Source: a bacterium (GTDB lineage: Bacteria > Patescibacteriota > Patescibacteriia > UBA1558 > UBA10009). Taken from it: a stretch of DNA of 64,000 nucleotides. The notes under the pieces were generated by a model, which did not search any database, was not told the origin of the DNA, and saw only the letters and a list, made by a program, of their open reading frames with translations. The stretch covers positions 736,977 to 800,976 of the forward strand of contig JABHGM010000001.1 of assembly GCA_018672055.1 (NCBI GenBank). The letters run 5' to 3'. Within the stretch, counting starts at the first letter, position 1. Every line of letters starts with the position of its first letter. This document shows, one piece after another, positions 2,533 to 45,591 of the stretch. Both the position numbers and the translations under genes were made by a program.

Positions 2533-2946
2533 TTAATCTAGATCAGGTCTTCCGTTATGTAGTTTTCTTTTATCACTTATCTTATTAATATTCATAAAAT
2601 CAATTATTCTTTGTTTTCTCTCATTCTTTTGTTTTGCTTTGAAATAAATTTCTAAAAATACTATTTTTTGAAAACTAGGAAAATATGCATAAATTACTCG
2701 AATACCACTTTTAGCTCCTCTACCTTTTAAACTCTTACATTGAAACTTTTTAATCTTAAAAAATTGTAACTCATCAGTATTACCAACACCTTGAATTTTA
2801 AAAATACTTCCACTATTAATTTCTTTGCCATGAAATAAATCTATACGATATTTCTTATTTACTTCTAAATCTTCAGTTAATGAAGAAAACTTCTTCATTA
2901 ATTTTTTAATATCTCTGGTAAATTCTTTCGTTTCCTCATATTTCAT
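2533..2946 (-). CDS. RelE/ParE-superfamily-like toxin, the downstream partner of the HTH-Panacea protein.
   Basis: 137 aa. Segment LKGRGAKSGIRVIYAYFPSFQKIVFLEIYFKAKQKNE resembles the RelE/HigB core (LKG...G.R.IY......I.LL.I). Abuts the antitoxin-like gene with a 1-bp gap. Confidence 0.45.
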   Translation of the reverse strand: MKYEETKEFTRDIKKLMKKFSSLTEDLEVNKKYRIDLFHGKEINSGSIFKIQGVGNTDELQFFKIKKFQCKSLKGRGAKSGIRVIYAYFPSFQKIVFLEIYFKAKQKNERKQRIIDFMNINKISDKRKLHNGRPDLD

Positions 2947-2947
2947 C

Positions 2948-3709
2948 CTAGTACTGTCTTACAGAAAATTCATCTGTCCTAGAAAAAACAGCTTCATAAT
3001 CAATAACTTTTAAATTATCTGTACCAATCCATGGTACATCTTTATGGGAGTATTCTTTTATTCTAGTTGCATTAAAATCTTTAAATCTTTCAATTTCCCA
3101 ATCAATAAAATCTTTTTCACGAGCAGTAAAACTTGATAAATCTGCATTTCTGAATGGAAGATACTTTTTTTGATCGTGTTGAAAATATTTATTTACAATA
3201 GCCCCTAAATCACCATCTTTTTCCATTTGTTTAACAATTTTTGTGAAAGCTACTGGTGTTGGACCAAAATGATTTTTTATATACTTAGCGCCTATTAACT
3301 GTTCTTCAAACTTTTCATAATAATCAAAATCAATAAAATACATTAATTTACAAATAACAGCTTCACCAACATTAGAACGAGCGCCAATTCGTTCTAAAAT
3401 ATATAATAATACTTCTTTAAATTTCTCTATTCTTTCTTGTGGTACAGAAATACGCATCTCTGGCTTTGGCTTTACTTTCTTTATAGTTTTAGCAAGTTTT
3501 ACTTTTGGTTCTAAATTTTCTTTACCAGCTAAAAAATCATCTAAAGACAATCCAAAAAATTTAGCAAAAGTTTGTGCTTCTTCAACAAGAAGCTTGCGTT
3601 TACCAGCCTCAATTTGTACATAAGTTGGCCTTGATACACCAATTCTTTTTGCTAAAAAATCCTGACTAATACCTTGTTTTTCTCTAAGTTTTTTTAAAAA
3701 AGTAGTCAT
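2948..3709 (-). CDS. Antitoxin-like protein: N-terminal XRE-family HTH fused to a C-terminal Panacea (DUF4065/SocA-like) domain.
   Basis: N-terminus LREKQGISQDFLAKRIGVSRPTYVQIEAGKR is a Cro/C1-type HTH. C-terminus KLMYFIDFDYYEKFEEQLIGAKYIKNHFGPTPVAF...DGDLG matches the DUF4065/Panacea signature. Confidence 0.55.
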   Translation of the reverse strand: MTTFLKKLREKQGISQDFLAKRIGVSRPTYVQIEAGKRKLLVEEAQTFAKFFGLSLDDFLAGKENLEPKVKLAKTIKKVKPKPEMRISVPQERIEKFKEVLLYILERIGARSNVGEAVICKLMYFIDFDYYEKFEEQLIGAKYIKNHFGPTPVAFTKIVKQMEKDGDLGAIVNKYFQHDQKKYLPFRNADLSSFTAREKDFIDWEIERFKDFNATRIKEYSHKDVPWIGTDNLKVIDYEAVFSRTDEFSVRQY

Positions 3710-5836: not shown

Positions 5837-6583
5837 TTAAATAATTTTATTTACTTCATCTCTATACTTACAATAATCACATTCAATACCAGCTTTAGGT
5901 ATACTTTTACTTTTTAAACATGTGTCAGCTTCTATAATCGCTTCATCTACCCAATTATCGTTCCCTTCATATGGTATAAGGGTTACTTCAAACTCTAACT
6001 TAGCATCAAAGGCTTCTTTATCTGTAATACCATTACAATACACAAAATAGCCTGTATTTGAGACTTTAAAGCCACTTTGTCTAAGTAGCCACTGATATAC
6101 TTCCATTTGCCTCTTATATGATATTTGCCAGTCTTGATCTAAAGCTTCAATCTTACCTTCTTTACTAGTAGATTTATAATCTACTACATATAATATACCT
6201 TTTTTATCTACCCAGATATCATCTATAGCGCCAAATATTATTAAACCTGTTTTTTTATGATTAACACGTATTCCTTTAAAATTCTCTCTCCATTCATCCA
6301 TCATATCGTGTTTAAAAGGTACTAAATCTATATTATATGATTTGAGTAATGGATGTACCTTATTCTTAGCTCTATGTATATCAAATTCTTTTTTGAGTAA
6401 AGTATCTACTGCACTATTTAAATTAAAAGGATAACCTGGAGGTCTTTTAATTCCAAGCTTATTATCTAAATAAAAGCATTTAGGACATTCAATAAATAAA
6501 TCTATTTTAGATCTAGATAATTTCCATTGACTTCCTTTATAATTCCATTCTGCTTTTCTTGGGATGTTATAGTATTGGGACAT
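5837..6583 (-). CDS. Standalone Cas4/RecB-family PD-(D/E)xK nuclease with a putative 4-Cys Fe-S cluster.
   Basis: Motifs GAIDDIWVD (motif I), VVDYKST (DYK, motif II), RQMEVYQWLL (QhxxY, motif III). N-terminal CPKC plus C-terminal C...CDYC. 1-bp gap after res. Confidence 0.6.
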   Translation of the reverse strand: MSQYYNIPRKAEWNYKGSQWKLSRSKIDLFIECPKCFYLDNKLGIKRPPGYPFNLNSAVDTLLKKEFDIHRAKNKVHPLLKSYNIDLVPFKHDMMDEWRENFKGIRVNHKKTGLIIFGAIDDIWVDKKGILYVVDYKSTSKEGKIEALDQDWQISYKRQMEVYQWLLRQSGFKVSNTGYFVYCNGITDKEAFDAKLEFEVTLIPYEGNDNWVDEAIIEADTCLKSKSIPKAGIECDYCKYRDEVNKII

Positions 6584-6584
6584 G

Positions 6585-9503
6585 TTATATTAATTTACCC
6601 TTAGCATTTGCTTCTGTAACTTTAGCTAATTCACAAATTTCACTTATTGAAGCATTGTTATCTTTTAGTCCATAAAAATGATTTTGACCTAACAAAATAT
6701 ATATCCATTTTCTTTCCATTCTATCTTTTGGATTTAATTTATTTATCCTTTTAACCCAATCAAGTGTTGCTAATTGTTTTTGTTTAACATTCAAATCATT
6801 TAAATCTTTATCCGATTTTGTTTCAATCAAATAAATTTTTTCTTTTGTTTTCACTATGAAATCTGGATAATATAATGATAATAAGCCGTCAGTTCTAATA
6901 TAAGTTATATGTGCGAATGGATGACGATATTCATCAATTTTTATAAAACTTTCAACTTTTGAATCTCCGTCGATATATTCAATAAAATCTTTTTCAAGAC
7001 CTCCTTTATTTGATGGAAATGGTAGTCTTTCATAAATACTTTTAGCTACCTTTAAAGAAAAGCTTTCTCTCATTTTCATTTCCGTAATTTCTGAAAAATT
7101 TTGTTTTCTTACAATCCCTTCGCTAGATTCTATGCTACTCTGCATTTCAAAAATTAGTTTTCCAACTTCTTTTACAATATGCTGAGTAACGATTCCATTT
7201 TTTAATAAGAGAACTTTCCAATTACTGCCATCAAATGGATCAAACCTTTTACCAAACAATTTTGTTCTAATATATTTATCAATAGTTTTTACTAAGTTTA
7301 TATTGTTTATTTGCATAGTAGGAAAAGCTCTAGCAGCTTTTCTACCAATACGTCCCATCCTATTCACTACTGTATTTAAAACTTTTTCTAAATATTCATT
7401 ATAACTTTGTGAATTGAATAAATTTGCATTTACTATATAATCACCAAATCTTGTTTTTACAGTAACCTCTTCTGAAAAAAATGATTCACCATCTTTTTTA
7501 AAAAATTGTTGCAGCTGTTCTAATTTAAAAGCCTCAAATTTTTCTAATTTATCTAGTTTCAAATCTGTAGATTTTAACTCCTCATCTGAATCTTTAACTA
7601 TATATGGCCAAAACAAATCATATTTTTCATAACCATCTTTAAGTTTAACTTTTATTAAATCTCCAACTACATCTGAACCAGAAGTAATTTCTACATTAGA
7701 CTCACCAATCAAACCTTCTGCTAAGAGATCGTCATAAAATTGAACAAAAGATGGATGTTCAATAATCGATAATATATCTAAATAATTAGTTGGCTCCTGT
7801 TTATCTAATAATAATTTTTTTCGATTCTCATTTTTAATATCCTGAAATTCTGGATCCCTCCACATCAAACGTAAACCTCTTCCAATTGTTTGCTCTAATA
7901 ATATTGGTGCATCAGAAGCTCTTAAAGGTACTATTACACATATATTATTCACATCAAAACCTTCTCTAAGCATCAAAACAGAAACTACTACTCTAGGATT
8001 TTTATGTTTATCCATATTAAACAGCCTTTGTTTAATATCAAACCATTCTTTTTCTGGCACTTCACCTTTTTTATTAGAGTCAATTTGCATGACCTCTTCT
8101 ACTTTTAATCCTTCTTGAATTAAAAATTCTGTTACTAAAGGTGTAACTTTAGTATCCTCGCACATTACCATCATTTTAGGATGCTTATTACTCTCTCCTT
8201 TTTCATCCCCAAAAAATTCTACAAAATGTTTTTCTAACTTGTTCAATTTTTTTAATCCAGCTCTTAACATTAATCTTTGACCATCTGATAAATCTATGGG
8301 TTTATTACCCTCTCTTATAGCTTTAAATTCTAATGGTAATTCTGCAATCTCCTTTCTTTTATCAATTGCTATAATTTTTACCATTCCTTTTTGAATTGCT
8401 GTTTTTAATTCAAAATCAACAATAATATAAGGAAAAAAATGTTTTGTTCTTTTTTGCCCACTTCCGGTAGTATCATAGGGCGTTGCAGAAAAATCGACTT
8501 GCATCATCTTTTTCTCTTTTCCAGCTGTAATTTGATTTAAACTTTTCTGCCATTCTACTTCTTGTATTTCTCCATAACTTTTATTTTCATGAATATGATG
8601 AGCTTCATCATTCATAATTACTAAATCATCTAAATCTACTAAATACTCTAACTCTTTACCTCTAGCATAAGCAGCATCTAAAGCTCTTAAATCATTGCCA
8701 GTTGCTTTTCCTGGGCTTATTGGCATAATGTCACGAATTATAGAACTTGGATTTTCTAATGGACTATTTAATTCTTCATCTAATTTTTCTTTTTCTAAAA
8801 ATAAATGCCAATTAGTAATACCTATCATTCCATCACCTGTAACTTTTGTTCCAATTTCCTCCTTCTTAGCTACACTACCTTGAATAAAACCAAATAACTC
8901 ATCTCTATAACTTGGTGGTATAAAAACATCTTGAAATAAATAAAAATCAGATTTCTCAAATTCTCTTTCACCTTTATTATTTTCTTTTCCTAAAAATGCA
9001 TCTAATAGTCTCTCGTAAACTATTAATCCAGGTGCAACCAAAAGAAAATTCTTTGAATATCTATTAGTTTTTTCTTCCTCATATTTAGCGTTTAAGTATT
9101 GCCAAATCATTAAAGCGTGCATAACCCAAGTTTTACCCGTACCTGTAGCCATCTTAATGGCATATTTGGGAATTTCATATTTTGGTTTTTTTAATTCTAC
9201 TGAATTAATTTCTAACAGCAATTCTGAATTAATATTCTGATATATATCTACCACTGATGTAGTTTTTAAAATTTCATGAAGGTAAATCACATTCAAAATT
9301 GCTTGCTTCTGACCTTCGTGAAAATTTATTTTACGAGTATCAATATGTGGCTCCTTAAACCAAAAATTTAAAAGATCTTTAGTAATAGGAGAAACCTTCG
9401 ATATAATTTCCCCGCTATCCCAAAATCCTAAAACTACTTCAGTTATATTTTTAGCTAATTTTAATGGAATATCTCGCGTTCCTATATTTAATGGTGTTGG
9501 CAT
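6585..9503 (-). CDS. res: Type III restriction endonuclease Res subunit (SF2 DEAH helicase plus C-terminal PD-ExK endonuclease).
   Basis: Walker A MATGTGKT, DEAH box (IMNDEAHHI). C-terminal YYPDF...IYLIETK endonuclease motif. Lies directly downstream of mod, the Type III arrangement. Confidence 0.8.
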   Translation of the reverse strand: MPTPLNIGTRDIPLKLAKNITEVVLGFWDSGEIISKVSPITKDLLNFWFKEPHIDTRKINFHEGQKQAILNVIYLHEILKTTSVVDIYQNINSELLLEINSVELKKPKYEIPKYAIKMATGTGKTWVMHALMIWQYLNAKYEEEKTNRYSKNFLLVAPGLIVYERLLDAFLGKENNKGEREFEKSDFYLFQDVFIPPSYRDELFGFIQGSVAKKEEIGTKVTGDGMIGITNWHLFLEKEKLDEELNSPLENPSSIIRDIMPISPGKATGNDLRALDAAYARGKELEYLVDLDDLVIMNDEAHHIHENKSYGEIQEVEWQKSLNQITAGKEKKMMQVDFSATPYDTTGSGQKRTKHFFPYIIVDFELKTAIQKGMVKIIAIDKRKEIAELPLEFKAIREGNKPIDLSDGQRLMLRAGLKKLNKLEKHFVEFFGDEKGESNKHPKMMVMCEDTKVTPLVTEFLIQEGLKVEEVMQIDSNKKGEVPEKEWFDIKQRLFNMDKHKNPRVVVSVLMLREGFDVNNICVIVPLRASDAPILLEQTIGRGLRLMWRDPEFQDIKNENRKKLLLDKQEPTNYLDILSIIEHPSFVQFYDDLLAEGLIGESNVEITSGSDVVGDLIKVKLKDGYEKYDLFWPYIVKDSDEELKSTDLKLDKLEKFEAFKLEQLQQFFKKDGESFFSEEVTVKTRFGDYIVNANLFNSQSYNEYLEKVLNTVVNRMGRIGRKAARAFPTMQINNINLVKTIDKYIRTKLFGKRFDPFDGSNWKVLLLKNGIVTQHIVKEVGKLIFEMQSSIESSEGIVRKQNFSEITEMKMRESFSLKVAKSIYERLPFPSNKGGLEKDFIEYIDGDSKVESFIKIDEYRHPFAHITYIRTDGLLSLYYPDFIVKTKEKIYLIETKSDKDLNDLNVKQKQLATLDWVKRINKLNPKDRMERKWIYILLGQNHFYGLKDNNASISEICELAKVTEANAKGKLI

Positions 9504-9514
9504 ATAATTTTGAT

Positions 9515-11095
9515 TTATAATTCTTCTATTACAATGCTTTCAAAACCAAAAACATCTACTGCTTTAACACATACTTTTCTTTTTGATTTTTTAGGCACTC
9601 TTAATGTAGTTTTTTTTATTACATGATATGGATCATTATCATTCTCTATATTTTCTCTATAATCTTGCCATTTGCTCCTAAATGTTTTACCGTCATAATC
9701 TGGATCAATACTCCAATATTCAATAAGGCTTAAAGGATCGCTAGATATAATTTCTTGTAGCTTCTCTTTGTCTTTATCGTCTAATGGTATATTGTCTGGG
9801 GACAACAAAACATAATTTTCTAATTCAATATTTATAACCTCCTCGTCCTTTTTACCCCCTACTTCTAATTGAATAGGTTTTATAGTTAAATATTGTAACG
9901 ATGAAAATCTAACTTTTCCACTATCAACTAGCTTATCATAACCTTTCTTACTTTTTAGTGTGTCTAATAAATCTGGAGGAATTACTAAAACCTCTAATTT
10001 ATCATCATTTAAGCTTTGAATAGCTTGAGTAATATCATAAGTAAAATTCCAGCCTAAAACTATGACCTTTTTCCACCCGCCCATAAATGAATTACGTAAT
10101 TCCATAGCTTTTTGTAAAGTATTTAAGCCAGTTAATTTATTAGGAGAATCAACAAAAATCAAAGTTTTAGAATCCTTGATATAACCTATATTCCTAATAT
10201 AACTATCTTCATCTTTAAAGGGAATTGCACCATACAATTGCAAAACTACATGAGATAAATCACCTATTCTTTTATATAATTTTGAAGAGGCTAAAACTTC
10301 CTTTTGATAATCTCCTATAGATTGATATAAAAATGGTTTTGTATCTTCGTCAATAAATCTTTTTCTAGAAATTAAATTAGCTGGCTTCCCTATATCAGAT
10401 ATAATCCACCTTCTATTTAATTTTTCAGAAACCGAACCTATAGTTCCAGAACCTGCAAAAAAATCAGCAACAATAGAATTTTCATTCGAAGATGATTCTA
10501 TTATCCGTTGAATAAGTGATTCTGGTTTTTGAGTTTTATAGTTTTTATTTTCAGAACTCATTGGATTAAGCATACTAACATACCATACATCTCCAACTCT
10601 CCTGCCTTTGAACTCCGCTATAATATCATCTTCAACTGGCTCTCTATCGTGTAATTTTATAAACTTTTTCAAATAAGGTTTAAATTTTCCATCATCATAA
10701 GGTGCATTATTTGCAAATATTTTACCATCTTTAATATAATTCTCCCATCTTTTTATTACACCACTATCTGTTCTTTCTTTTTCATAAAGAATATTAAAAA
10801 TAGCATTTTGACTTTTTGTATAATAAAAAATCATCTGACTTCTTTTTGGAAAATTATTTTCACTTTCCACCCACGACCCTTGATATTCCCAAGTAATATG
10901 TGATCCAAAATTATTTTTACCAAAAATATCATCCAACAATAATTTTACATAGTGACCAACATGCCAATCTATATGTACATATATGGATCCTTTGTCTGAT
11001 AATAATTCTTTCATTAAAGCAAGTCTAGGATACAACATTTTAAGATATGAGACCGTCCCTTCTCTCCAGGTATCAGAATATGCAAATTGTTCCAT
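9515..11095 (-). CDS. mod: Type III N6-adenine DNA methyltransferase Mod, C-terminal portion. In frame with 11108..11476 but separated from it by a TAG stop.
   Basis: [62 protein letters not shown] parallels the region after DPPY in Type III Mod proteins. Later FAGSGT (SAM-binding motif I). Confidence 0.75.
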
Positions 11096-11107
11096 AGTAG
11101 TAGGTTT

Positions 11108-11476
11108 CTACTCCAAATCTTTTCCTTTTAATTTAATCTTGATTCTATAATCAGCTTTAGAATCGAACGGTGGATCAATATATATAAGATCTATCTTGCC
11201 TCTTAAAGAATCTAAATTACTAGCTGGATCACCAGCTAGTAAAGCTTGGATTACTAGTAAATTATCTCCATAAATTAAACGATTAATCCAATCGACTTCT
11301 GATTCCTCAGGCATTCTCCCACTAAACAAACCAGCGGAGTCCTTAGCTGGTAAAACCAATTCATTTGTTTGTAATGTAAGTTTGCTTTTACTAGATAACC
11401 TTTCTAATATCTGTTCTACCTCTTTTTTACCCTCTTTTACGATCTTTGGTAATTCTTCTATTAAAGATTTTGTCAT
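11108..11476 (-). pseudogene. mod: Type III Mod, N-terminal portion ending right after catalytic motif IV (DPPF). An in-frame TAG at 11108-11110 separates it from the rest of mod.
   Basis: IDLIYIDPPFDSKADY (DPPF motif). Same reading frame as 9515..11095, with only 4 codons between the TAG and the downstream ATG. Confidence 0.65.
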
Positions 11477-11537
11477 ATAATATAAATTTATTTATTTACT
11501 CTTATTTTTCCACTTTTTACCTAAGTTGTCAATAAAA

Positions 11538-11566
11538 ACAGAGTTTTACTCTGTTTTTATATTATA
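11538..11566 (-). terminator. Intrinsic terminator after the 813-aa gene. A probable mod promoter (TTGACA) follows on the minus strand.
   Basis: AAAAACAGAGTTTTACTCTGTTTTT hairpin with a T-run on the minus strand. Confidence 0.45.
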
Positions 11567-11722: not shown

Positions 11723-11795
11723 ATTTATATTTACTTCTTTCATTCTTTTAAGGATTTAAGCGGATTTGGTTGGTTTTTTATGTTTTTCTTTTTGA
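11723..11795. repeat. Conserved repeat, copy 4, overlapping the stop codon of the 813-aa gene.
   Basis: ATATTTACTTCTTTCATTCTTTTAAGGATTTAAGCGGATTTGGTTGGTTTTTTATGTTTTTCTTTTTG is about 90% identical to 4168..4240. Confidence 0.7.
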
Positions 11796-14219
11796 TTTAG
11801 ATTTGTTTAATTTTTTCTTTCTTTTTCTTTCCCATTCTTCGTGCCACTCTGTATGCCAAGAAGGCATTTTCAAATAAATTTGTTGCGTGGCATTGCATAG
11901 ATTAATAAGACCTGGTATACGATCATGTTCTTTCTTTGTTTTTTTATCCCAGCAATAAGGTGGTCCCAATTGATTTAATAACTCATTACCAGTTAAAATT
12001 AAAACAGGATTAATAGGTCTTTCTGACTTCCAATATTTTCTTCCTGATTTAGTGATTTTTTTTAGTTCTATAATTTCATTTCTTGTTAGTGATTTTCGTA
12101 AAGTACTAAAAACTAATATAGCGCCTGGAAAAGTTTTTGCTAGATATCGCATTCTTGTAAAATCTTTTTTTTCAAACATTCCATATGTTTTGCACTCACT
12201 AAACAATAAGCCATCTTTTTTCTGACCGTAAACTGAATCCTGCCAAAATGCTGCAAAATCTGCTTCTATATTTTCTTTGTCAGCAGTAATAGCAGAAAAA
12301 CTTAATAATGGTGTTATACGCATCGTGGTCATTTTATATTCATTGAAAAAATCTAGTGCTAAAAGAACTGCATAAGCACCTTCTGCATAATTCGGTATAC
12401 TAAATGGTCCAACAGTCTTATAACACCATATAGAGTTTTCTAAATTACCAATAGCAGAAAAATCATTGAGACATAATTGACACAAAAAGTTATTACTAAT
12501 TTTTTCAAGCTCAAACCAGGACTTTCTTGAACAATATGGACATTTAATACGTATCCCTAATTTAAATACTCCTTTTTCAACTAAATAATTATGTAACTTG
12601 TCACCTCTTGTTTTATCACTCAATCTTCTTTTTATTTCGCCAATTGGCATTTCTCTTTCTTGATTGATCTTATTATTTGCTTTTGGACTTCCAGCTATAT
12701 TTACACTACCACCATTCATATGCTCAAAAATGTTTAGTAGCTTTTCATTTTTTAAAGTTGATAAATAACCATTAAGTTGTTTATGAATTTGCTTTGCTAA
12801 TTTTCCTGAAGACGATAATTTTGGTTCCCATCCTAAATCTTTCAGCCAAGCAATAACAATATTTTCAGATAATGGAATATTTATTGTTTCGTTAGAATTA
12901 TCTTCAACAAGTCTCACGAGTCCGTTATTTCCAACTCGCCAATTACCTCGTAAAGCCATAAGGCCAGATATCTCTCGTATAAAATTTTTAGCAGAAGATT
13001 TAGGAAAAACTTCTGCAATATATTCATCTGCACCATAAAAACTAAATATAACTTCATTTGCACAACGTGGATTTCCATGATAACTGTATTTATCAGCAAA
13101 ATCTGGCAGTAAAGTAGTGAATCTTATATTATTTTTCAAATCTGCAACATCAAATGATTCTTCTTGACTACCATATATATTGTCTGGTATTGCACCATCT
13201 TTATCACGAGCCCACTCATCCCAAACCCTTGGATACCAATGTTGTAGTACGTAAAAACTATCTTTAGATAGGTCATTAGAATCTGGTTTTATTTTTATGG
13301 TCTTTGCAAAATTTTCAACCTCCTCCATCGTACAATTACGTGATCTGATAATTGAAGCCCTATCACAAACGGTCGGATTATGTTTCCATGGACGACGATA
13401 CATTTTTAAAAAATTAATAACAATTTTTTTTATTACAGGCTCACTCTTCATCTGTTTTGCTACAGGCATCACCACTCTACCCATTGCCCTTAAATTCCAA
13501 TAATCAACTATATCTTCAACCTTGTTTGCATCCATAAAGTAAATACAAGCATCTCTACCAAAACGTGTATGGCTATTATTATTTATTTTGTGTAGCGTAA
13601 TTCTACGTGGAAACAAAATATTGTTCTTTAACATTTTATTTAAATTTTTAATTTCAAATTTTGGAGTCTCTATTTCAAGTGGTCCATAATAATGTTTTTT
13701 TAAATTTGGAATTACCTCAGGTAAAATTTCACCAAAAAAACTAGACCAAAATAAAGAATATTTTCTTGGTAATTCAGGAAATGCAATTTTCATTGGATAT
13801 TTCATTTTATATTTAAAGTCTTGTTCAAAAATATCATCTAATATTTCATAAATACCAAGCCCATATGAAGGGATTAAATTAAAATCTTCATTTATATTAT
13901 CCCAAATTTCATTTGATTTTATAATTTTTAAACCACTATCAACAATATATTTAGGAACTGATTTTGATAATTGTATAAGAATATCCGGATCAAATGCATC
14001 AAGATAACCGAGTATTACATCTTTTGCTAAAGGAGCTTTTATGGTTCCATCTTTCCATGTAGCAGGCATTATTTTATATAATTGTATAATTGGAAAAAAA
14101 GATCCCCCCCACAAAGTTGAGCTTAATTGAATTGCCTTTTTAACTTGTGTCGAACTTTTTGGATCAACTAAAAAAGCAATTTTCAATGGCCTAGTTTTAA
14201 TATTAATTGTACCTATCAT
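11778..14219 (-). CDS. Large cytoplasmic protein of unknown function with an internal zinc ribbon and a basic C-terminal tail.
   Basis: 813 aa with no TM and no Walker motifs. CPYCSRKS...CQLC zinc-ribbon. C-terminal RKRKKKLNKSKSKRKT. Sits between the glycan cluster and the R-M operon with its own terminator. Confidence 0.5.
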   Translation of the reverse strand: MIGTINIKTRPLKIAFLVDPKSSTQVKKAIQLSSTLWGGSFFPIIQLYKIMPATWKDGTIKAPLAKDVILGYLDAFDPDILIQLSKSVPKYIVDSGLKIIKSNEIWDNINEDFNLIPSYGLGIYEILDDIFEQDFKYKMKYPMKIAFPELPRKYSLFWSSFFGEILPEVIPNLKKHYYGPLEIETPKFEIKNLNKMLKNNILFPRRITLHKINNNSHTRFGRDACIYFMDANKVEDIVDYWNLRAMGRVVMPVAKQMKSEPVIKKIVINFLKMYRRPWKHNPTVCDRASIIRSRNCTMEEVENFAKTIKIKPDSNDLSKDSFYVLQHWYPRVWDEWARDKDGAIPDNIYGSQEESFDVADLKNNIRFTTLLPDFADKYSYHGNPRCANEVIFSFYGADEYIAEVFPKSSAKNFIREISGLMALRGNWRVGNNGLVRLVEDNSNETINIPLSENIVIAWLKDLGWEPKLSSSGKLAKQIHKQLNGYLSTLKNEKLLNIFEHMNGGSVNIAGSPKANNKINQEREMPIGEIKRRLSDKTRGDKLHNYLVEKGVFKLGIRIKCPYCSRKSWFELEKISNNFLCQLCLNDFSAIGNLENSIWCYKTVGPFSIPNYAEGAYAVLLALDFFNEYKMTTMRITPLLSFSAITADKENIEADFAAFWQDSVYGQKKDGLLFSECKTYGMFEKKDFTRMRYLAKTFPGAILVFSTLRKSLTRNEIIELKKITKSGRKYWKSERPINPVLILTGNELLNQLGPPYCWDKKTKKEHDRIPGLINLCNATQQIYLKMPSWHTEWHEEWERKRKKKLNKSKSKRKT

Positions 14220-14319: not shown

Positions 14320-15726
14320 TCACAACCCAATAACCTCCCCATCCATATCATGAAGTACCTCTACATTAAAATGATTTAATATAGTAGGTGCATAATCTAA
14401 TATATTAATATCTTTCTTACTATTTAATACACCTTCACCATAAGCTAAGAATATACCTTTTTTTTCATTTTCACCAGTCCAATGGTCTGGAGCCTCAAAA
14501 ACATGTTTAGAGCCTAAAGAACCACTAAAATGAGTATGAGGAGCTTGATCTACTATTAAATCAGGAGCTTTACTTAAATCAGAAGACTTATATATTTCTT
14601 CCCGAGTAAATACCTTATTTACTATACTCATACCCTTATACTCTAATTCTTCTAACTCACGTATTAATTTATTCTTAAATTCTAAGTCTTTACTTAGTAA
14701 GTATATAGGGCCTTGACCAGAAGCAAAACATTTAGAATTATCCCAATCTATTTTATCTGCTTTACCTGCATACATTACTTGTCCTTCTTTATTTGGTATC
14801 ATTTCTTGTACTTTACGTGGTACTAGTTTTTTAGCTAGTTCTTTTAAATGTAGCTTAGTAAATAGTTTAATTAAAGATTCTCGGTTAATACCTATTTTTT
14901 CTAGTTTGGAACTAGTATTATCTTGTTTAATCTTTAAATAGCCTTTTTCTTGTAAATACGTATTAATATTGAATTTAAATTTAATTTCATTAGTACCATG
15001 ATCAGACATTAAAAAGAATAATCTATCTGGGTACTTAGTAATTAATGAATTAATACCCTCATCTATTATTTGCCAAGCTTTAAATACTTTATCATCTCCA
15101 TAGTGGTAATGCTGTAATACGTTTATTAAATAAACAGCTACCATAAAGAAATCAAAGTTACCTTCTTTTAAAAGATACTCAGCAACTTCAAAACGTACTT
15201 TAATTAGTCTATATATTTCATCTATTACTGAAGTCTCATCTTTTTTCATTAAACTAATATTCTGAGGTAATGCTCTATAATCAAATTTATTCTTTAAAAG
15301 CTTTTCTAAAGGTTCAGGATAGGTATACTTAGATTCCATAGCATCTGGGCCACCTGAAACCATTACTCCATTTATTTTATGTGGCGGATAAGTTGTAGGC
15401 ATATTTACAACGCCTACTCGGTAACCAGCATCGGATAAGTAATCAAATATTTCTTTACCTTTAAAATTGTCAGAAGAAGGTATATATATTTTTCTATTGG
15501 CTACATCTACGTTTTCCCACCAATAAACACCAAGTTTAGCTGGATTTAAACCTGTAGAAAAACATTTCCAATTTGGTGATGTTACTGGAGGAAGTTGTGA
15601 TTCTTGAATACCCCAAGTTCCTTGTGTCTGTAGTTTCTTAAATGTAGGTAGTTTATCTTCATCAATCCATTTTTGAATATAGTTCCAACTACCACCATCT
15701 AAACCTATTACTATTACTTTCTGCAT
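14320..15726 (-). CDS. Alkaline-phosphatase-superfamily enzyme (type I phosphodiesterase/nucleotide pyrophosphatase-like), last gene of the glycan operon.
   Basis: N-terminal IVIGLDGGSW metal-binding motif. SGGPDAM and LMSDHGTN motifs typical of the AlkP core. Overlaps the upstream GT gene by 13 nt. Confidence 0.55.
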   Translation of the reverse strand: MQKVIVIGLDGGSWNYIQKWIDEDKLPTFKKLQTQGTWGIQESQLPPVTSPNWKCFSTGLNPAKLGVYWWENVDVANRKIYIPSSDNFKGKEIFDYLSDAGYRVGVVNMPTTYPPHKINGVMVSGGPDAMESKYTYPEPLEKLLKNKFDYRALPQNISLMKKDETSVIDEIYRLIKVRFEVAEYLLKEGNFDFFMVAVYLINVLQHYHYGDDKVFKAWQIIDEGINSLITKYPDRLFFLMSDHGTNEIKFKFNINTYLQEKGYLKIKQDNTSSKLEKIGINRESLIKLFTKLHLKELAKKLVPRKVQEMIPNKEGQVMYAGKADKIDWDNSKCFASGQGPIYLLSKDLEFKNKLIRELEELEYKGMSIVNKVFTREEIYKSSDLSKAPDLIVDQAPHTHFSGSLGSKHVFEAPDHWTGENEKKGIFLAYGEGVLNSKKDINILDYAPTILNHFNVEVLHDMDGEVIGL

Positions 15727-22020: not shown

Positions 22021-22710
22021 CTATTGTCCTAATAATCCTCTAACCTCTTCTATTTCTAAATTAACTAGATCTTTCATTTCTTGTTCTGGTGCATGCTCTA
22101 CAAATAACTGTAAATATTCTAAAGCCTTTTCATTATTAGCCATTTCTCTTAAATATGAAGAGTAGAAATAAATTAATTGATAATCATTATTTGTTTTTAC
22201 AATACCTTCTTCAAATATATCCATTACCCTCTGAGTATTATTATAGTCTTGTGCTTTATATACTTTAGCTAAATTAAAATATACTAAGTAGTATGTATCA
22301 CTTAAAGATCTGGCTACTTCAAAAGATGCAATGGTTTCGTCATACATAGCTAATCTATAATAGACATTACCTATATTTAACCAAGGTGTACTATTGGTTG
22401 GAATTAATTCGGATGCTTGTTTAAAATATTCTATAGCTTGTGTAGCATTACCTAATTCTCTTTCAATATTTCCTAAATCTAAATATGAGGTATAGTTACC
22501 TGGAAATAATTCTAAATCACTTAAATTCTTATCTCTTCTGTCCTCAAAATCTTTTCTAGCTTCTTCAGACATATTAACTTCTAGGAATAAGCCTTGTTCT
22601 GTATTATTAACGATATCAAAATTATTTTTAGTAAAATAAAATACTGCTAATACTATAATAATTAGTATTACTATAATATAAAATAATTTATTATTGATCT
22701 TGTTCATCAT
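22021..22710 (-). CDS. TPR-repeat protein with an N-terminal membrane anchor.
   Basis: N-terminal TM (LFYIIVILIIIVLAVFYF) followed by TPR-like A/Y/L periodicity. Confidence 0.5.
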   Translation of the reverse strand: MMNKINNKLFYIIVILIIIVLAVFYFTKNNFDIVNNTEQGLFLEVNMSEEARKDFEDRRDKNLSDLELFPGNYTSYLDLGNIERELGNATQAIEYFKQASELIPTNSTPWLNIGNVYYRLAMYDETIASFEVARSLSDTYYLVYFNLAKVYKAQDYNNTQRVMDIFEEGIVKTNNDYQLIYFYSSYLREMANNEKALEYLQLFVEHAPEQEMKDLVNLEIEEVRGLLGQ

Positions 22711-24982
22711 ATTGATTTTTTATTAATTGTTCTATTTCTTTATATGACTGTAAAGCATTGTAACTATAGCCTGGGTTAATTTTAGATGCTTGTTTTAAAA
22801 TTACTAAAGCTTCTTCATATTGTAAATCCATAACATATAAGCCAACTAAATTATTCCAATGATTTAAATCGGTTGGATCAATCTCAGTTAAAATCGTAAC
22901 TACATTAATTAATTGTTCAACATCTTGTCTTTCATCAAAATAATTTAATAGTTCAAATATATCATTATTTGAAAACGGATAATTATGTTCCATCATTTTT
23001 TTATACATCTCTCCTTGACCATCTACATTACCTTGAGCCTTATAAATAATTGATTTATAGTAATAATTTTGAGCTGTTCCCTCATTAATATTTATAGCTA
23101 TATCTATATTCTCTATAGCTAAATCATATTGCTCATTTAAAAGATACATTTGTGCAATTACCCAATATGGTCTAATTCTATTAGCAGCATATTCTTTAGA
23201 TTCAACAGCAAAGTAAAGGCCCTTGTCAAAATATTCCATATCACCTGTTAATTCAAAAAGATGAGAATAATTTTTAGACTGAATATAATAAAGATACATA
23301 TTAGATGAATCTAAATCTAAAGCTCTATCCATTAAACTAGCAGCTATTTTAAAATTACTAATCTTTGTTTCTGGAGATGCAAAAAAGTTTTGATTATAAA
23401 ATGATTCATCTAAAGCACTAGAAAATAAATGAGCTGGATCTATCTTATTAACTGCTACATCTGCTGCTTGCTTATAATGTTCAACCATTGTTTCGTAATC
23501 AACTCTACCCTTGTCTCTAAATGTTTCAAATATTGAATTATTTGCTTTAACTTCTACTAAATTAATACTAAAGAATAACCAAGTAAAACTAATTATAACT
23601 AAAGGTATTGTTAAAATAGGTCTGGCTAATACCTTAGACTCATTTAAAGACTCATTATTATCTTGAATATACAAACTATAAACAAAGGCAAGTAGTAAAT
23701 AGAATAAGATTAAACTATTTAAAGAATCAAAGACAAATAAATTTTGAATAAAGTATGTTATAAATAATAAGCTAAGTATAATAAATGAAGAATCTGAAAG
23801 TAATTTCCTTTTAAGTAAATTAATTAAATAATAAAATAATGCAATAAAAATTGATAGATAACTAAGCAAACCAAATATACCCATCATTACACCAATGTCA
23901 ATTACTGTATTATGTGATCTATCAAACCAAACTTCATCACCAGTATAATCATAAAATTCAGGATTAATATATTCATTAAAAACATTTTGAAAATTTTCAG
24001 AGCCAACACCTAATAATAAATTATCTTTAAAGCCTTCATAACCTGCTTGCCAAGAAAGAAGTCTAGTTTGTACTGTATTATCTTCTAAAGAATAATTAGT
24101 AAGTCTATTTAAAAAATAATTATCTTTTATAAATGAATTGCTTCTTAAAGCAAATAATGATGAGCCTAGTAGAACTAATATACTTACACCTATTAACATG
24201 TACTTAATTCCTTTATTATTTCTCCATAACTTTAAAACTAAACTAAATATAATGAAAATAATAAGAGAAATAAATAAAGCTAGCTGAGCACCACGAGTAG
24301 CTGCTAAAAATATATTAATTAAAACTAAAACAAATGAAATAATATAAAATATTTTGTATTTAATATCTTTTACTTTAAATAAGTATAATAAAGATATAAA
24401 TAAGTGAAATATTAAATAACTAGATAATAAAGAAGCATTACCAATAGTACTTTTAACTCTGTCTATACCTGCTTCAAATACAAAATTTAAACCTAACATC
24501 TGGGCTATACCATATAAACAAATAACTATAGATGTTACTAATGAAAAATCTAATATCCTCTTCCAAGCTATTTGGGTTTTAAATACTGATATTAAAATTA
24601 AAAACCAAACAAAATAATGGAGATAATTAAATGTACCCATCATTCTTTCCCAATTACCCCACCAACTTCTAGCAATGCTATCTCCAGTAAAAGTAGTTAC
24701 TAACATAACAACAAAGAAAGCTATTAAACTCCATAATAAGAATGATTTTTTAGGTAAATATTTTCTATTAAATAATACTAATACTAAATAAATACCAAAC
24801 AGTAATTCAATAACTATCCTTAAGAGGATAGTCTTTTGAATAACGTATGGAAAATATGATTGAGGTATAAAAATTGCAGGTATAAAAACAATAAAATAAC
24901 TACCCCAAATAAGTAATTTTTTAAGTATATTTTCTAGTTTTAAGCTATTATTTTCTAGCATAAGTATTAATATAAGATACAC
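22691..24982 (-). CDS. Wzy_C/O-antigen-ligase-like polytopic membrane protein fused to C-terminal TPR repeats. Candidate O-oligosaccharyltransferase or polymerase.
   Basis: At least 10 TM. LAATRGAQLALFISL loop typical of Wzy_C/O-antigen ligase. C-terminal ~300 aa is TPR-like. Confidence 0.55.
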   Translation of the reverse strand: MYLILILMLENNSLKLENILKKLLIWGSYFIVFIPAIFIPQSYFPYVIQKTILLRIVIELLFGIYLVLVLFNRKYLPKKSFLLWSLIAFFVVMLVTTFTGDSIARSWWGNWERMMGTFNYLHYFVWFLILISVFKTQIAWKRILDFSLVTSIVICLYGIAQMLGLNFVFEAGIDRVKSTIGNASLLSSYLIFHLFISLLYLFKVKDIKYKIFYIISFVLVLINIFLAATRGAQLALFISLIIFIIFSLVLKLWRNNKGIKYMLIGVSILVLLGSSLFALRSNSFIKDNYFLNRLTNYSLEDNTVQTRLLSWQAGYEGFKDNLLLGVGSENFQNVFNEYINPEFYDYTGDEVWFDRSHNTVIDIGVMMGIFGLLSYLSIFIALFYYLINLLKRKLLSDSSFIILSLLFITYFIQNLFVFDSLNSLILFYLLLAFVYSLYIQDNNESLNESKVLARPILTIPLVIISFTWLFFSINLVEVKANNSIFETFRDKGRVDYETMVEHYKQAADVAVNKIDPAHLFSSALDESFYNQNFFASPETKISNFKIAASLMDRALDLDSSNMYLYYIQSKNYSHLFELTGDMEYFDKGLYFAVESKEYAANRIRPYWVIAQMYLLNEQYDLAIENIDIAININEGTAQNYYYKSIIYKAQGNVDGQGEMYKKMMEHNYPFSNNDIFELLNYFDERQDVEQLINVVTILTEIDPTDLNHWNNLVGLYVMDLQYEEALVILKQASKINPGYSYNALQSYKEIEQLIKNQYDEQDQ

Positions 24983-25075: not shown

Positions 25076-28000
25076 TTAGTTAAGTACTCTAGTAACGTCT
25101 AAAGTCTTAATCTTATAACCATTGTACCAATCAGCTGAACTTGAATCATCAGCAGTAATATCGGCATGGGTATTATTACCATTAGTACCGGTATTATCTG
25201 ACCAAATCATATAAGCTGCAGCATCAGTAGTACCACTAGCATCATCAGTTAAACAGAATTTGCCAGGTACACCACTAACACCAGTTGCATCACAATGAGC
25301 TGTGATGTAATTATAGGCTGTGGTTGAAGAATCACCATCATTCAAGTACATACTAATAGAGTCACTACTGGAAGCTCCAGTATTAACATTACCAGCTGTT
25401 GCTTTTAAGATGAAATACTTACTAGAACCAGCACTGATTAATCTATCATCATTAAAGACAACGATTACATCATGAGAAGTTGAAGAAGTATTACCAGCAT
25501 AGTTTTGATAAACAACACCAGTTGAAGCACTTAATTTACCACCTGTACCAGTACCATTAGCAGTTGTAGTTGTTACACCATAACCGTTATAGACTTGGTA
25601 ACCATCAGTTGCAGTATCACTTTGTGTTAAGACAGTAGCAGCACTATAACTTGAACCTTCATAAACTTGGAAGTTTGTAAGACTCAAGGTAGATGTAGTT
25701 TGAACTGAATCAGTAAGACTTAACTTAAATGATAATTTCTTCAAGCTTAATGCAGTACCACCTTCAGGAGCGCTAACTTGGAATCTGTATAATTCGGCAG
25801 GACCATTAATTAAACTTGCATTTGTAGTATTATCAGCAGTAAATGTTGGTACTGTACCCATTACAGTCATAACGCTACCAGCTCTATCAGTTGTATCAGA
25901 TGGAGCAGTTAGGCTAGTACTTCCAGAATCAGCACTCTTAGCTTCAAAGTTAGCATCACTATCAAAGTTAGCATAAATTTCATCACCAGAATAAGTAGCA
26001 TTAGTTTGATTGATAGCAGGAATATTGAAGTATACATTCATTATTCTATATGTATTAGCTGGGATATAGAATGGATTTGTTGTGATATTGAAGTCAGCGT
26101 TACCACTAATTTCAACATTATTTGCAGTTATAGTTTCACCAGCTTCATTCATGTAACCAATAGTAACTGAATCTACAGCTCTATTACCATCAGCTTGTAA
26201 CTGTTGGATTCTAACCTTATTAAGGTTGAATGCTTCGTTAACAGCTTGAAACTTAAGGTTAAGCATAGGTACATCAGAAGTACCAGCAACTACATTAGCA
26301 ATTGAAGGGTTACTTTCGGTAGTAACATTCAAAGTACCTGCATCAGAAATAAGAACGTAATAAGAACTGGCTACTAATGTAGCAGAACCATTACCATCAG
26401 CAATAGCCCAAGCAGTACCATCATTATCAGTTAAAGTAACATCTGTACCTGTGTCATCATTAATTGATACACCGGCAGCAGTAGCTACATTAATCTTTAC
26501 AGTCTTATTAACTGAACATCCATTTGTATAAGCAGTATTAACTGTATCACCAACAACTCTCATGACATGAGTCTCACCACCTGGAATAGTCCAATTAACA
26601 TTGGAGAAGGTTGCTGCACCTGTAGCAGATGCAAAACTTTCGATGGTTGAATTTAGATTATTAGTCATGTCTGGATCAGCAGTAATATCATACAATGCTA
26701 GAGATGAAATTAGGTTGTTAACAGTTGTATAAACAGCTGCACCACAATCTTGACGTCTTACGACAACATTAGTGGTGTCAGTACCAACATAACCATATAA
26801 AGTTAAGCCAGTTATTGTCATATCTGAACCTGAACCTGCGTTGAAAGCAAATTCACCTAAATTAACATCTTCTGTACCTTGAACTACTGTAACACCAGCA
26901 GCATTACTAGCTAGGGCAATACCTAGAGAAGCAGCTGCTACTGTCATATCATTACCTGTAGTATGAGTAGTAGGGACAATATCAGTAATCCATTGGTTAT
27001 TATCAGTATTCTTAATACCATCAGTTGTATTAATGGTATAAGTACTTCCTGTACTACCTAAAGTAGCATAGTAATTACCGGTTGTACTTAAACTTACGTT
27101 TAAGTCAGCAACTACTTTGAAAGTTCTGGTTTGACCAGCATCAAAATTAAAGTAATCAGTATAGTCATAATAAATACCAGCATCTGATCCACTAATTTCA
27201 GTGAAAGTACCACAATCAACACCTGATGTTGAATCACCATTATCTACGTCAACGATCTTAACGTTAGAAATATAATTACTAGAAGTATCACAAGCAGTAT
27301 CATCATCATCAGTATCTAAGTCAGTAGAATCATTATGTAATTCAAGTCTTAACTTACGTAATTCAGCATTAACACCAGAAGTAATTGAAAAGTTTAATAA
27401 TTCTACTTCTGTACCACCTCTAGCAACAGTTGATGATTGAGGTCCATTTTTAGCAACAGTAATTTGACCACCTTGAACAGTTAAGGTTGTTGTATCAGCA
27501 TCACCACTAACACCATCATAATCACCTGAAGTTACACCAGCACCATAACCATAGAATGAACCTACAGCTAATAGATCGGATGTATTTTCTAAGTAGATCT
27601 TAGTAGTATCACCGTTTCTAGAATCACCACTTATATCACCATAAATCTTAAAAATACGATTTGTATTTTTTTCTAAGATAAATGGACTATCACTTAAATC
27701 AAACACAACTAAACTGTTACTTGTAATACCACTAACAGTACCAAGCAAATCTGCGCCTTGATAAAGCTCTAAATCAGTAATATAAGTACTATTAATACTA
27801 CCAGCTTGATATAGAGTAATTCTACTAATTTCAAGATTTTCAGCAGAACCAGCAGTTAACTTGAATTGAGCAATTTGTGCATTTTGTTGAGCTACAGTTG
27901 GGTTTGCAAGAGTACCATTTTTTGCAATGGTAATTGTACCTGCAACACTTGAACCCAATGTTAATGTGTTACTAACTAATGGAAATGAACCATTAATAGC

Positions 28001-45516: not shown

Positions 45517-45591
45517 TGGTACCGCCTAGGGGAATCGAACCCCTGTTACCGGAATGAGAATCCGGCGTCCTAGCCACTAGACGAAGGCGGC
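45517..45591 (-). tRNA. tRNA-Glu (anticodon CUC), 75 nt with an encoded CCA.
   Basis: Manual fold of GCCGCCTTCGTCTAGTGGCTAGGACGCCGGATTCTCATTCCGGTAACAGGGGTTCGATTCCCCTAGGCGGTACCA. 7-bp acceptor stem (G1-U72 wobble), D-arm, anticodon stem CCGGA/TCCGG with loop TTCTCAT, T-arm AGGGG-TTCGATT-CCCCT. Close to canonical tRNA-Glu. Confidence 0.8.

Follow-up and report, generated by a model that had tools for sequence, protein, structure and literature searches.

A conserved family of ~800-residue proteins with a predicted PD-(D/E)xK domain, a candidate defense endonuclease of Patescibacteria and other prokaryotes

The 64,000-nucleotide stretch of Patescibacteriota DNA analyzed here (the window; positions 736,977 to 800,976 of contig JABHGM010000001.1, GenBank assembly GCA_018672055.1) carries on its minus strand, at 11778-14219, an uninterrupted open reading frame (ORF) of 813 codons, and the present work concerns the 813-aa protein into which it translates. 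GC content is ~29% throughout this region, so an ORF of such length is not expected by chance; moreover, more than 560 full-length homologs were found, the closest at 50 to 62% identity. Together with the stop codon at 11778-11780 and the AlphaFold2 model described below, these homologs marked the ORF as a complete gene, as the initial annotation of the window had proposed. Upstream, on the same strand and across a gap of 100 nt, lies a gene of the Phosphodiest (alkaline phosphatase superfamily) type (14320-15726) that forms the end of a run of GT4 glycosyltransferase genes; downstream lie the genes of a type III restriction-modification (R-M) system, Mod (N6_N4_Mtase) and Res (ResIII). These neighbors were as originally described. 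About 215 nt past the stop codon, a terminator-like hairpin with a symmetric 13-bp stem and A/T runs on both sides occupies 11532-11560; the initial annotation had recognized this terminator but had placed it at 11538-11566. A promoter-like TTGACA-17-TG-AAAAAT (11504-11532, minus strand) directly follows the hairpin, in agreement with the earlier placement of the gene upstream of a mod promoter. The terminator-like and promoter-like elements would set the 813-aa gene apart transcriptionally from the R-M operon (5837-11476, minus strand), which is treated here as context and not as part of the gene. When the whole window was searched with Rfam at the gathering threshold, the sole match was a tRNA (45520-45591, minus strand), and no RNA element was matched in the 300-nt spacer downstream of the gene.

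An AlphaFold2 model of the full protein, built from a 32-sequence alignment, had a mean predicted local distance difference test score (pLDDT) of 85.6 and a predicted template modeling score (pTM) of 0.81, and the predicted structure is compact, with its several domains packed together and not strung out like beads. Conservation was read from a family alignment of 207 sequences that are 27 to 62% identical to the window protein (median, 34%). Residues 1 to 334 (13218-14219; all domains are on the minus strand) were predicted to form two beta-alpha-beta Rossmann-like lobes (residues ~1 to 110 and 211 to 334) with a helical insert (residues 111 to 210), and we propose that they make up a sensor or regulatory region. 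The most highly conserved N-terminal motif, D230-A-x4-D236-x2-D239-x-W-N242-L-R244-A-x-G247 (DANKVEDIVDYWNLRAMG; 13479-13532), lies in the second lobe; conservation reached 0.99 at D236, 1.00 at N242, and 0.98 at both R244 and D79, and this motif together with D77-P-D79 is a candidate ligand- or metal-binding site. A beta-rich, acidic middle domain with an invariant N388 (residues 335 to 450; 12870-13217) is followed by a basic helical module with a helix-turn-helix (HTH)-like S469-x2-G472 turn (residues 451 to 550; 12570-12869), both delimited from the model, conservation, and charge profile; the latter is a putative DNA-binding module. Next comes a Cys4 zinc ribbon, C560-P-Y-C563...C580-Q-L-C583 (12471-12542), inside a predicted four-stranded beta-ribbon domain (residues 551 to 596). 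The ribbon had been noticed before, near residue 560, and each of its four cysteines proved to be 100% conserved in the 207 homologs. Beyond the nuclease domain described below, C-terminal helices (residues 751 to 813; 11781-11969) end with a Lys/Arg-rich tail (residues ~796 to 813). The initial annotation had read this tail as a hint of nucleic acid binding; it is indeed present in the window protein, where 11 of the final 20 residues are Lys or Arg, but it is a weak clue, being strong only in the close subfamily (family median, 25% Lys/Arg; at least 40% in 38 of 207 sequences). The domain charge profile held nothing informative beyond the mildly basic HTH-like and nuclease modules. One 888-aa member (P0124) has a C-terminal extension (residues ~700 to 888) with a P-loop motif, GPSGVGKST, that is absent from the other members seen and represents either a kinase-like fusion or a missed stop codon.

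The protein had been described as devoid of recognizable catalytic motifs, which turned out to be wrong. Residues 597 to 750 (11970-12431) are predicted with good support to form a PD-(D/E)xK (restriction-endonuclease-like) nuclease domain, as judged from the topology of the AlphaFold2 model and from Foldseek searches. The modeled core runs alpha 611-624, beta 633-645, beta 650-663, beta 666-677, alpha 684-696, and beta 701-706, with pLDDT values mostly between 84 and 96 in this block. The catalytic-type motif E652-A-D654...E675-C-K677 (EADFAAFWQDSVYGQKKDGLLFSECK; 12189-12266) falls on predicted strands 2 and 3, with D654 near the beginning of strand 2 and E675-C-K677 closing strand 3, which is the textbook PD-(D/E)xK layout. 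Conservation in the 207 homologs was 0.99 for E652, 1.00 for D654, 1.00 for E675, and 0.98 for K677, and D686, E715, T743, and E746 were 98 to 99% conserved; a separate 60-sequence alignment gave identical invariants. The family thus shows both the alpha-beta-beta-beta-alpha-beta fold of the superfamily, in predicted form, and its conserved acidic residue and (D/E)xK element. When the full model was compared with the PDB by Foldseek, the best match was Cdn1 with cyclic tetra-adenylate (9u49; E value, 3e-4; probability, 0.97), followed by five Can2 entries and then by MspJI (4f0q; E value, 0.07), AspBHI (4oc8; E value, 0.11; root mean square deviation, 3.6 over 99 columns), SfsA, and Mus81, all of which are PD-(D/E)xK enzymes. 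Template modeling (TM) scores did not exceed 0.32, because only parts of the 813-residue query match. These matches provide support at the level of the fold and are convincing only when joined with the invariant motif. No curated PD-(D/E)xK profile in Pfam matched the window protein at an E value of ≤10 or any of 60 diverse members at an E value of ≤0.05; a missing profile match is common among divergent members of this clan.

The N-terminal third was tested for a CARF domain because Cdn1 and Can2 are CARF-nuclease fusions (PMC12825302). Residues 1 to 335 were modeled separately (pLDDT, 85.8; pTM, 0.87) and then searched against the PDB by Foldseek, which returned nothing convincing (best E value, 5e-3; TM score, ≤0.31). 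The weak matches were to generic two-lobe alpha/beta proteins, namely, glutamate racemase, the CWB2 modules of Cwp6/SLP, phosphofructokinase, IspH, carbamoyltransferases, and a few GT-B enzymes. The 50 best PDB matches of this region included no CARF protein, and matches to the Pfam CARF and DUF1887 profiles were likewise absent, so that a CARF identity of the N terminus is unsupported, with the caveat that lobe 2 may have contributed to the full-length alignment with Cdn1. No Pfam or PADLOC match to a reader of modified bases (SRA, EVE/PUA, McrB-N, Mrr-N, or DUF262) was obtained either, in searches in which the beta-rich residues 335 to 450 were not treated separately.

Searches of the window protein against Pfam, PADLOC, and NCBIfam returned zinc-ribbon noise only, and none of the 5,027 models of PADLOC-DB v2, which include Shedu, Upx, PD-T4/T7/Lambda, Gabija, and others, matched at an E value of ≤10. 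Sixty diverse members searched one by one against Pfam likewise yielded noise only, and no relative was recovered from the PDB by sequence with the single protein or with two family profiles. A literature search found no description of the 813-aa protein family, a result that does not disprove the existence of one, and plasmid-borne members are labeled "hypothetical protein" in RefSeq. The family is nevertheless large: when 1.84 billion cluster representatives were searched with a profile, 2,914 proteins were recovered at an E value of ≤1e-3 and 777 at an E value of ≤1e-30, each of the 2,914 standing for a cluster at 50% identity, and nearly all of these representatives were ~800 residues long and aligned end to end. 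A relative on a Bradyrhizobium plasmid with just 23% identity retains the N-terminal motifs RP-L-R...WGG and D-x2-D-x-WNLRA, the zinc ribbon, and E-x-D...E-C-K, which is good support for conservation of the whole 800-aa architecture down to about that level of identity. Tandem paralogy on this plasmid was considered and rejected, the neighboring 758-aa protein being unrelated.

In a census with one genome per species, relatives were present in 128 of 185,579 species (~0.07%) belonging to more than 15 phyla. Carriers included Patescibacteria of several classes, Acidobacteriota, Nitrospirota, Alpha-, Beta-, Gamma-, and Deltaproteobacteria, Bacteroidota, Verrucomicrobiota, Planctomycetota, Chloroflexota, Gemmatimonadota, Poribacteria, Zixibacteria, Ignavibacteriota, Cloacimonadota, and one metagenome-assembled genome (MAG) of the Methanosarcinales. 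The member in this MAG is 62% identical to Patescibacteria members, but its contig is just 5.8 kb long, and mis-binning is possible. Identities of 55 to 62% between members from different phyla indicated horizontal transfer. Five full-length distant relatives (22 to 26% identity) were found on proviral contigs of IMG/VR. Among prophage copies, one (L091, 8001-10409) lies after MuA/MuB-type genes in a Mu-like transposable prophage, and another (L093, 7983-10271) lies between endolysin/head and baseplate genes in a myovirus-type (P2-like) prophage; both are moron-like cargo. A prophage-borne relative had no match in PHROGs. At 5 of 82 loci (L020, L037, L042, L048, and L084), the gene was split or truncated into two ORFs, a pattern that fits the decay of an accessory gene that is dispensable or costly.

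The surroundings of the family were analyzed by collecting all ORFs within 10 kb on each side of the gene at 82 nonredundant loci and clustering them all against all. There was no conserved partner gene, as no neighbor family was present at more than 9 of the 82 loci; ORF clusters with high counts were rejected as partners, being shadow ORFs that overlap the family gene itself. Instead, the recurrent clusters were HsdM (9 loci), two kinds of HsdR (6 and 4 loci), HsdS (5 and 3 loci), a type III-like N6_N4 methylase (5 loci, the window included), a Mrr_cat_2-helicase-HA protein (4 loci, adjacent in 2), large serine recombinases (8 loci), tyrosine integrases (5 loci), and rve transposases (4 loci). 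R-M genes occurred within 10 kb at no fewer than 20 loci, and R-M or recombinase/transposase genes occurred at no fewer than 32. At no fewer than five loci (L003, L051, L053, L062, and L066), the family gene was located between hsd genes, co-directionally and 0 to 75 nt from hsdS or hsdR; since these loci span distant subfamilies (~55% and ~32% identity to the window protein), such nesting arose more than once. The commonest PADLOC and Pfam families among 142 immediate neighbors, namely, mad2, MTase_I, type IIG, HsdS, MTase_II, ResIII, Eco57I, AAA_15, AAA_21, GmrSD_N, SLFN_AlbA_2, HNH, and Tsp45I, were all R-M or defense families.

Eleven contexts were labeled with Pfam, and nine of them were defense or mobile islands. 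One was a type I R-M operon; one was an integrative and conjugative element (ICE) with TraG, a relaxase, an integrase, and a gasdermin-protease gene; and one was a prophage-like island with ThsB_TIR and SLATT genes. Others combined HNH_5, type I/IIG R-M, a serine recombinase, and Prim-Pol; a methylase/SNF2 pair, HipA, and Schlafen; MazEF, HepT/MNT, and IS66; or AAA_13, a recombinase, and a transposase. At L090, an HTH gene, type III Mod, and Res precede the family gene, and GIY-YIG and AbiTii genes follow it, and the window itself offers type III R-M, a Cas4-like PDDEXK_1 gene, and an HTH-Panacea antitoxin module. A distant plasmid copy adjoins PrlF/YhaV and an AbiJ-like gene. Type III-like Mod and Res pairs were present only in the window and at L090, so co-occurrence with both is not conserved. 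The possibility that the protein is a third subunit of the adjacent type III Mod/Res enzyme was rejected, an N6_N4_Mtase being near only 5 of the 82 genes and the hairpin and promoter-like site intervening in the window. Solo loci have no methyltransferase within 10 kb, and no methyltransferase family is conserved beside the family gene.

Some pairings were restricted to particular lineages. An HNH_5 nuclease gene directly precedes the family gene with a 6-nt gap at one locus (L089, 6988-7995), and a gene for an 859-aa AAA_13 ATPase follows it at another (L098, 4136-6715); these may be lineage-specific two-gene variants. In Legionellaceae and Poribacteria, a large Mrr_cat_2-ResIII helicase-HA protein is encoded near the family gene (L073, 7328-10300; L076, 12532-15021; L070; and L075), convergently and at 6 to 33 nt in two of the four loci, and may be a restriction-like neighbor or partner in that subclade.

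The best account of these observations, to which we assign a probability of roughly 55%, is that the 813-aa protein is a self-contained, single-polypeptide defense endonuclease of a hitherto unnamed family. The family needs no conserved partner gene, and there is good support for viewing it as rare, phylogenetically scattered cargo of defense islands, R-M operons, ICEs, and prophages. The suggestion in the initial annotation of a candidate novel defense protein is backed by comparative context and by the absence of the family from Pfam, NCBIfam, PADLOC, and PHROGs. Among the neighbors, which the initial annotation had proposed to tabulate, R-M and defense genes recur and glycosyltransferases do not.

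Several points weigh against this account. The defense role is a putative one, drawn from guilt by association and a predicted nuclease domain. The nuclease call itself comes from a predicted structure, modest Foldseek matches (E values of 3e-4 to 0.1; TM scores of ≤0.32), and a short motif, and no sequence profile in the Pfam and PDB sequence and profile searches ties the family to any PD-(D/E)xK family. By clustering, about 60% of loci had no recognizable R-M or mobile gene within 10 kb, and 2 of the 11 labeled contexts were plain housekeeping neighborhoods in which the gene stands alone (Desulfonatronum and Terracidiphilus). The presence of R-M genes within 10 kb at about one quarter of the loci is an excess estimated at roughly 10-fold over the general R-M density of a few systems per genome. 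Sequenced plasmids are nearly free of the family (2 of 72,556 records), and no member was found in GenBank phages. Finally, the N-terminal region is unlike the known modified-base readers SRA, EVE/PUA, McrB-N, and Mrr-N, which leaves a type IV-like mode of action without direct support.

Given the invariant E/D/ExK residues of the PD-(D/E)xK domain, the protein is expected to be a Mg2+-dependent nuclease whose substrate is most probably DNA. The basic HTH-like module and the zinc ribbon would hold the DNA, and the N-terminal pair of Rossmann-like lobes would be the sensor that decides whether the nuclease fires; the acidic and polar cluster (D77/D79 and D230/D236/D239/N242/R244) would be expected at the cleft between the lobes. 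Since a methyltransferase is frequently lacking and an always-on sequence-specific enzyme would kill the host, cleavage must be conditional. In one possible mode, the enzyme would be modification dependent in a type IV-like manner and would complement the neighboring type I or III R-M systems, which attack unmodified DNA. In the other, the two-lobe N terminus would sense a ligand or a phage protein as a cue of infection and would trigger DNA degradation of the abortive infection kind. The modification-dependent mode is slightly favored. The nuclease core resembles those of MspJI and AspBHI, and there is a precedent in TgvAB, a GmrSD-type type IV system that is nested in a type I R-M operon on VPI-2 of Vibrio cholerae, occurs outside R-M clusters as well, and has been proposed to complement R-M (PMC11411939). 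A bolder version, which we put forward only tentatively, is that the protein is the founding example of a widespread, unrecognized class of single-protein immune nucleases in which residues 1 to 335 adopt a new sensor fold; at its invariant acidic cleft, this fold might recognize either a hypermodification of phage DNA or a small molecule specific to infection and thereby license the zinc-ribbon/PD-(D/E)xK cutter.

It is unlikely that the family represents instead a selfish or mobile-element nuclease, spreading as a single gene in a homing-like manner or serving postsegregational addiction or the exclusion of competitors. Lone-gene insertions between unrelated housekeeping genes, the recombinases, integrases, and transposases counted above, the copies in an ICE and in Mu-like and P2-like prophages, the 62% identity across bacterial phyla and the archaeal MAG, and the split or truncated copies would all suit such an element. 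However, a search of the window for terminal repeats or target duplications around the gene gave only AT-rich chance matches, and co-directional nesting between hsdS and hsdM/hsdR in several unrelated lineages is a signature of defense cargo and not of a homing element. In addition, an 813-aa protein with a large nonnuclease region is unlike known homing endonucleases. Exclusion of competitors would in practice be defense, so that this part of the alternative overlaps with the defense endonuclease reading.

Also considered was a second-messenger-gated effector like Can2, Card1, and Cdn1, in which the lobes would bind a cyclic or linear nucleotide from a type III CRISPR, CBASS, or Thoeris-like system and switch on the nuclease. 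The best matches of the full model were to Cdn1 and Can2, and these alignments, spanning 556 to 618 columns, are long enough to match both an N-terminal alpha/beta domain and, in the same succession, the C-terminal nuclease; furthermore, one close relative adjoins the ThsB_TIR and SLATT genes. Set against this, no CARF or SAVED protein was among the top 50 matches of residues 1 to 335 alone, no Pfam CARF, DUF1887, or SAVED match was obtained in the 61 members scanned, and no Cas10, CRISPR, cyclase, or CD-NTase family was present among the recurrent neighbors of the 82 loci or the 25 commonest families of the 142 immediate neighbors. The gene also occurs on its own among housekeeping genes, and the protein is double the size of Can2, with additional domains. 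On balance, we regard a nucleotide-gated effector of this type as quite unlikely.

Genes nested in hsd operons are classically guards, such as RloC, PrrC (which works with EcoprrI), and PARIS (which responds to Ocr). The 813-aa protein could by analogy be an R-M accessory that monitors the neighboring type I or III enzyme and is unleashed when a phage antirestriction protein blocks it, as might be suggested by at least five loci inside type I operons and by the proximity to type III R-M in the window and at L090. This appeared improbable, however, because the 10-kb flanks of most loci are free of R-M genes and because the R-M partners differ in type (I, III, and IIG) and subfamily, leaving no conserved specific protein-protein partnership; in the window, the gene is parted from mod by the hairpin and promoter-like site, and mod itself has an in-frame stop codon. 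The initial proposal of a surface-glycan enzyme, with the lobes as a GT-B-like glycosyltransferase or sugar-nucleotide enzyme, is close to refuted: the reading rests on the window alone, where the gene lies 100 nt downstream of the Phosphodiest/AlkP-type gene and the GT4 run on the same strand, and the two-lobe Rossmann layout common to GT-B enzymes was accompanied by only a few weak GT-B/epimerase Foldseek matches at noise level (E values, 0.07 to 0.4; TM scores, ≤0.2), whereas no glycosyltransferase or other glycan family recurs near the 82 loci, no glycosyltransferase Pfam match was obtained, the gene is also solitary among housekeeping genes, the family is found in only ~0.07% of species, and an invariant zinc ribbon and nuclease module have no role in glycan synthesis.

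Other features were recorded on the minus strand of the window. In the type III operon, mod (9515-11476) is split by an in-frame TAG at 11108-11110 into a 122-aa part, which holds the DPPF motif, and a 526-aa part; the TAG may have arisen by nonsense mutation, mark the gene in a phase-off state, or be read through, and if Mod is dead, then the adjacent Res should be inactive too. Two nucleotides past the end of res (6585-9503; ResIII) begins a PDDEXK_1 gene (5837-6583, labeled by Pfam) for a 248-aa Cas4/RecB-like protein with Cys-rich ends, which looks to be co-transcribed with the type III genes and would be unusual as the third gene of such an operon. At 2533-3709, an HTH_3 and SocA/Panacea antitoxin gene (253 aa) and then a 137-aa ORF with no Pfam match form a probable toxin-antitoxin module at the edge of the island that holds the R-M operon and the 813-aa gene. 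Farther away, at 25076-29131, is encoded a 1,351-aa secreted protein rich in Thr, Ser, Gly, and Ala, with a local GC content of 0.33 to 0.35 compared to ~0.28; this protein, which adjoins an O-antigen-ligase-like membrane protein with tetratricopeptide repeats (22691-24982), is probably of the surface or S-layer type.

If the defense endonuclease reading is true, the known prokaryotic immune systems would gain a conserved family of ~800-aa proteins that comprises thousands of clusters yet is named in none of Pfam, NCBIfam, PADLOC, PHROGs, and the PDB, and this family would be among the few such systems in the reduced genomes of Patescibacteria. To our knowledge, little beyond R-M has been described of immunity in this group. 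The repeated nesting among hsd genes adds to an emerging rule by which complementary systems are housed in type I R-M operons, and, should the new sensor fold prove real, methylase-independent restriction would gain a new mechanistic type, one found repeatedly inside such operons. A new principle of sensing may reside in the two N-terminal lobes and their invariant acidic cluster. There might also be a practical use, since a conditional nuclease that consists of one chain and has a novel recognition module could be turned into a reagent such as a modification-dependent cutter. Another nuclease in defense islands will not surprise the specialist; what stands out is the size and conservation of the family, its nesting in type I operons, its presence in the candidate phyla radiation, and its unexplained sensor region.

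Among known systems, the closest structural parallels of the full model are Can2, Card1, and Cdn1, DUF1887 CARF-PD-(D/E)xK effectors of type III CRISPR-Cas systems, in which an N-terminal Rossmann-like domain is likewise followed by a C-terminal PD-(D/E)xK domain with an E/D/ExK center and the sensor gates the nuclease (PMC12825302). The 813-aa protein is twice as long, however, adding a second alpha/beta lobe, a beta-rich domain, the HTH-like module, and the Cys4 ribbon, and it differs further in that its N terminus alone retrieves no CARF structure, that it matches no DUF1887/CARF profile, and that it lacks a CRISPR or cyclase neighborhood. With MspJI and AspBHI, which are modification-dependent type IIM/IV enzymes, it shares a single chain, the lack of a cognate methyltransferase, and an order in which a recognition part at the N terminus precedes the PD-(D/E)xK domain at the C terminus, but no SRA-like base-flipping domain was detected, the structural matches are weak and confined to the nuclease core, and there is no PADLOC match. 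The likeness to TgvAB is one of context only, a methylase-independent nuclease system between hsd genes; the proteins are unrelated, TgvAB consisting of two (DUF262 and DUF1524-HNH) and the present system of one with a PD-(D/E)xK domain. Stand-alone PD-(D/E)xK defense nucleases such as Shedu (SduA, DUF4263) and Upx are also single-gene cargo of defense islands in which a variable or large N terminus controls a C-terminal PD-(D/E)xK domain, but the present family gave no PADLOC match to either, Shedu structures were outside the top 50 PDB matches, and its N-terminal region is conserved family-wide and not variable. A nuclease triggered by an infection cue would thus be analogous to Can2/Card1/Cdn1 or Shedu in logic and not in homology. 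By its predicted mode of action, the protein most resembles a PD-(D/E)xK defense nuclease gated by a sensor. Taken together, these comparisons place the family outside every named group against which it was tested (CARF-nucleases, the MspJI family, PADLOC systems, and type III R-M subunits) and inside the PD-(D/E)xK superfamily at that level only. What is new is a widely distributed family and its architecture, with an N terminus that has no recognizable structural relative, within the familiar category of defense-island nucleases.

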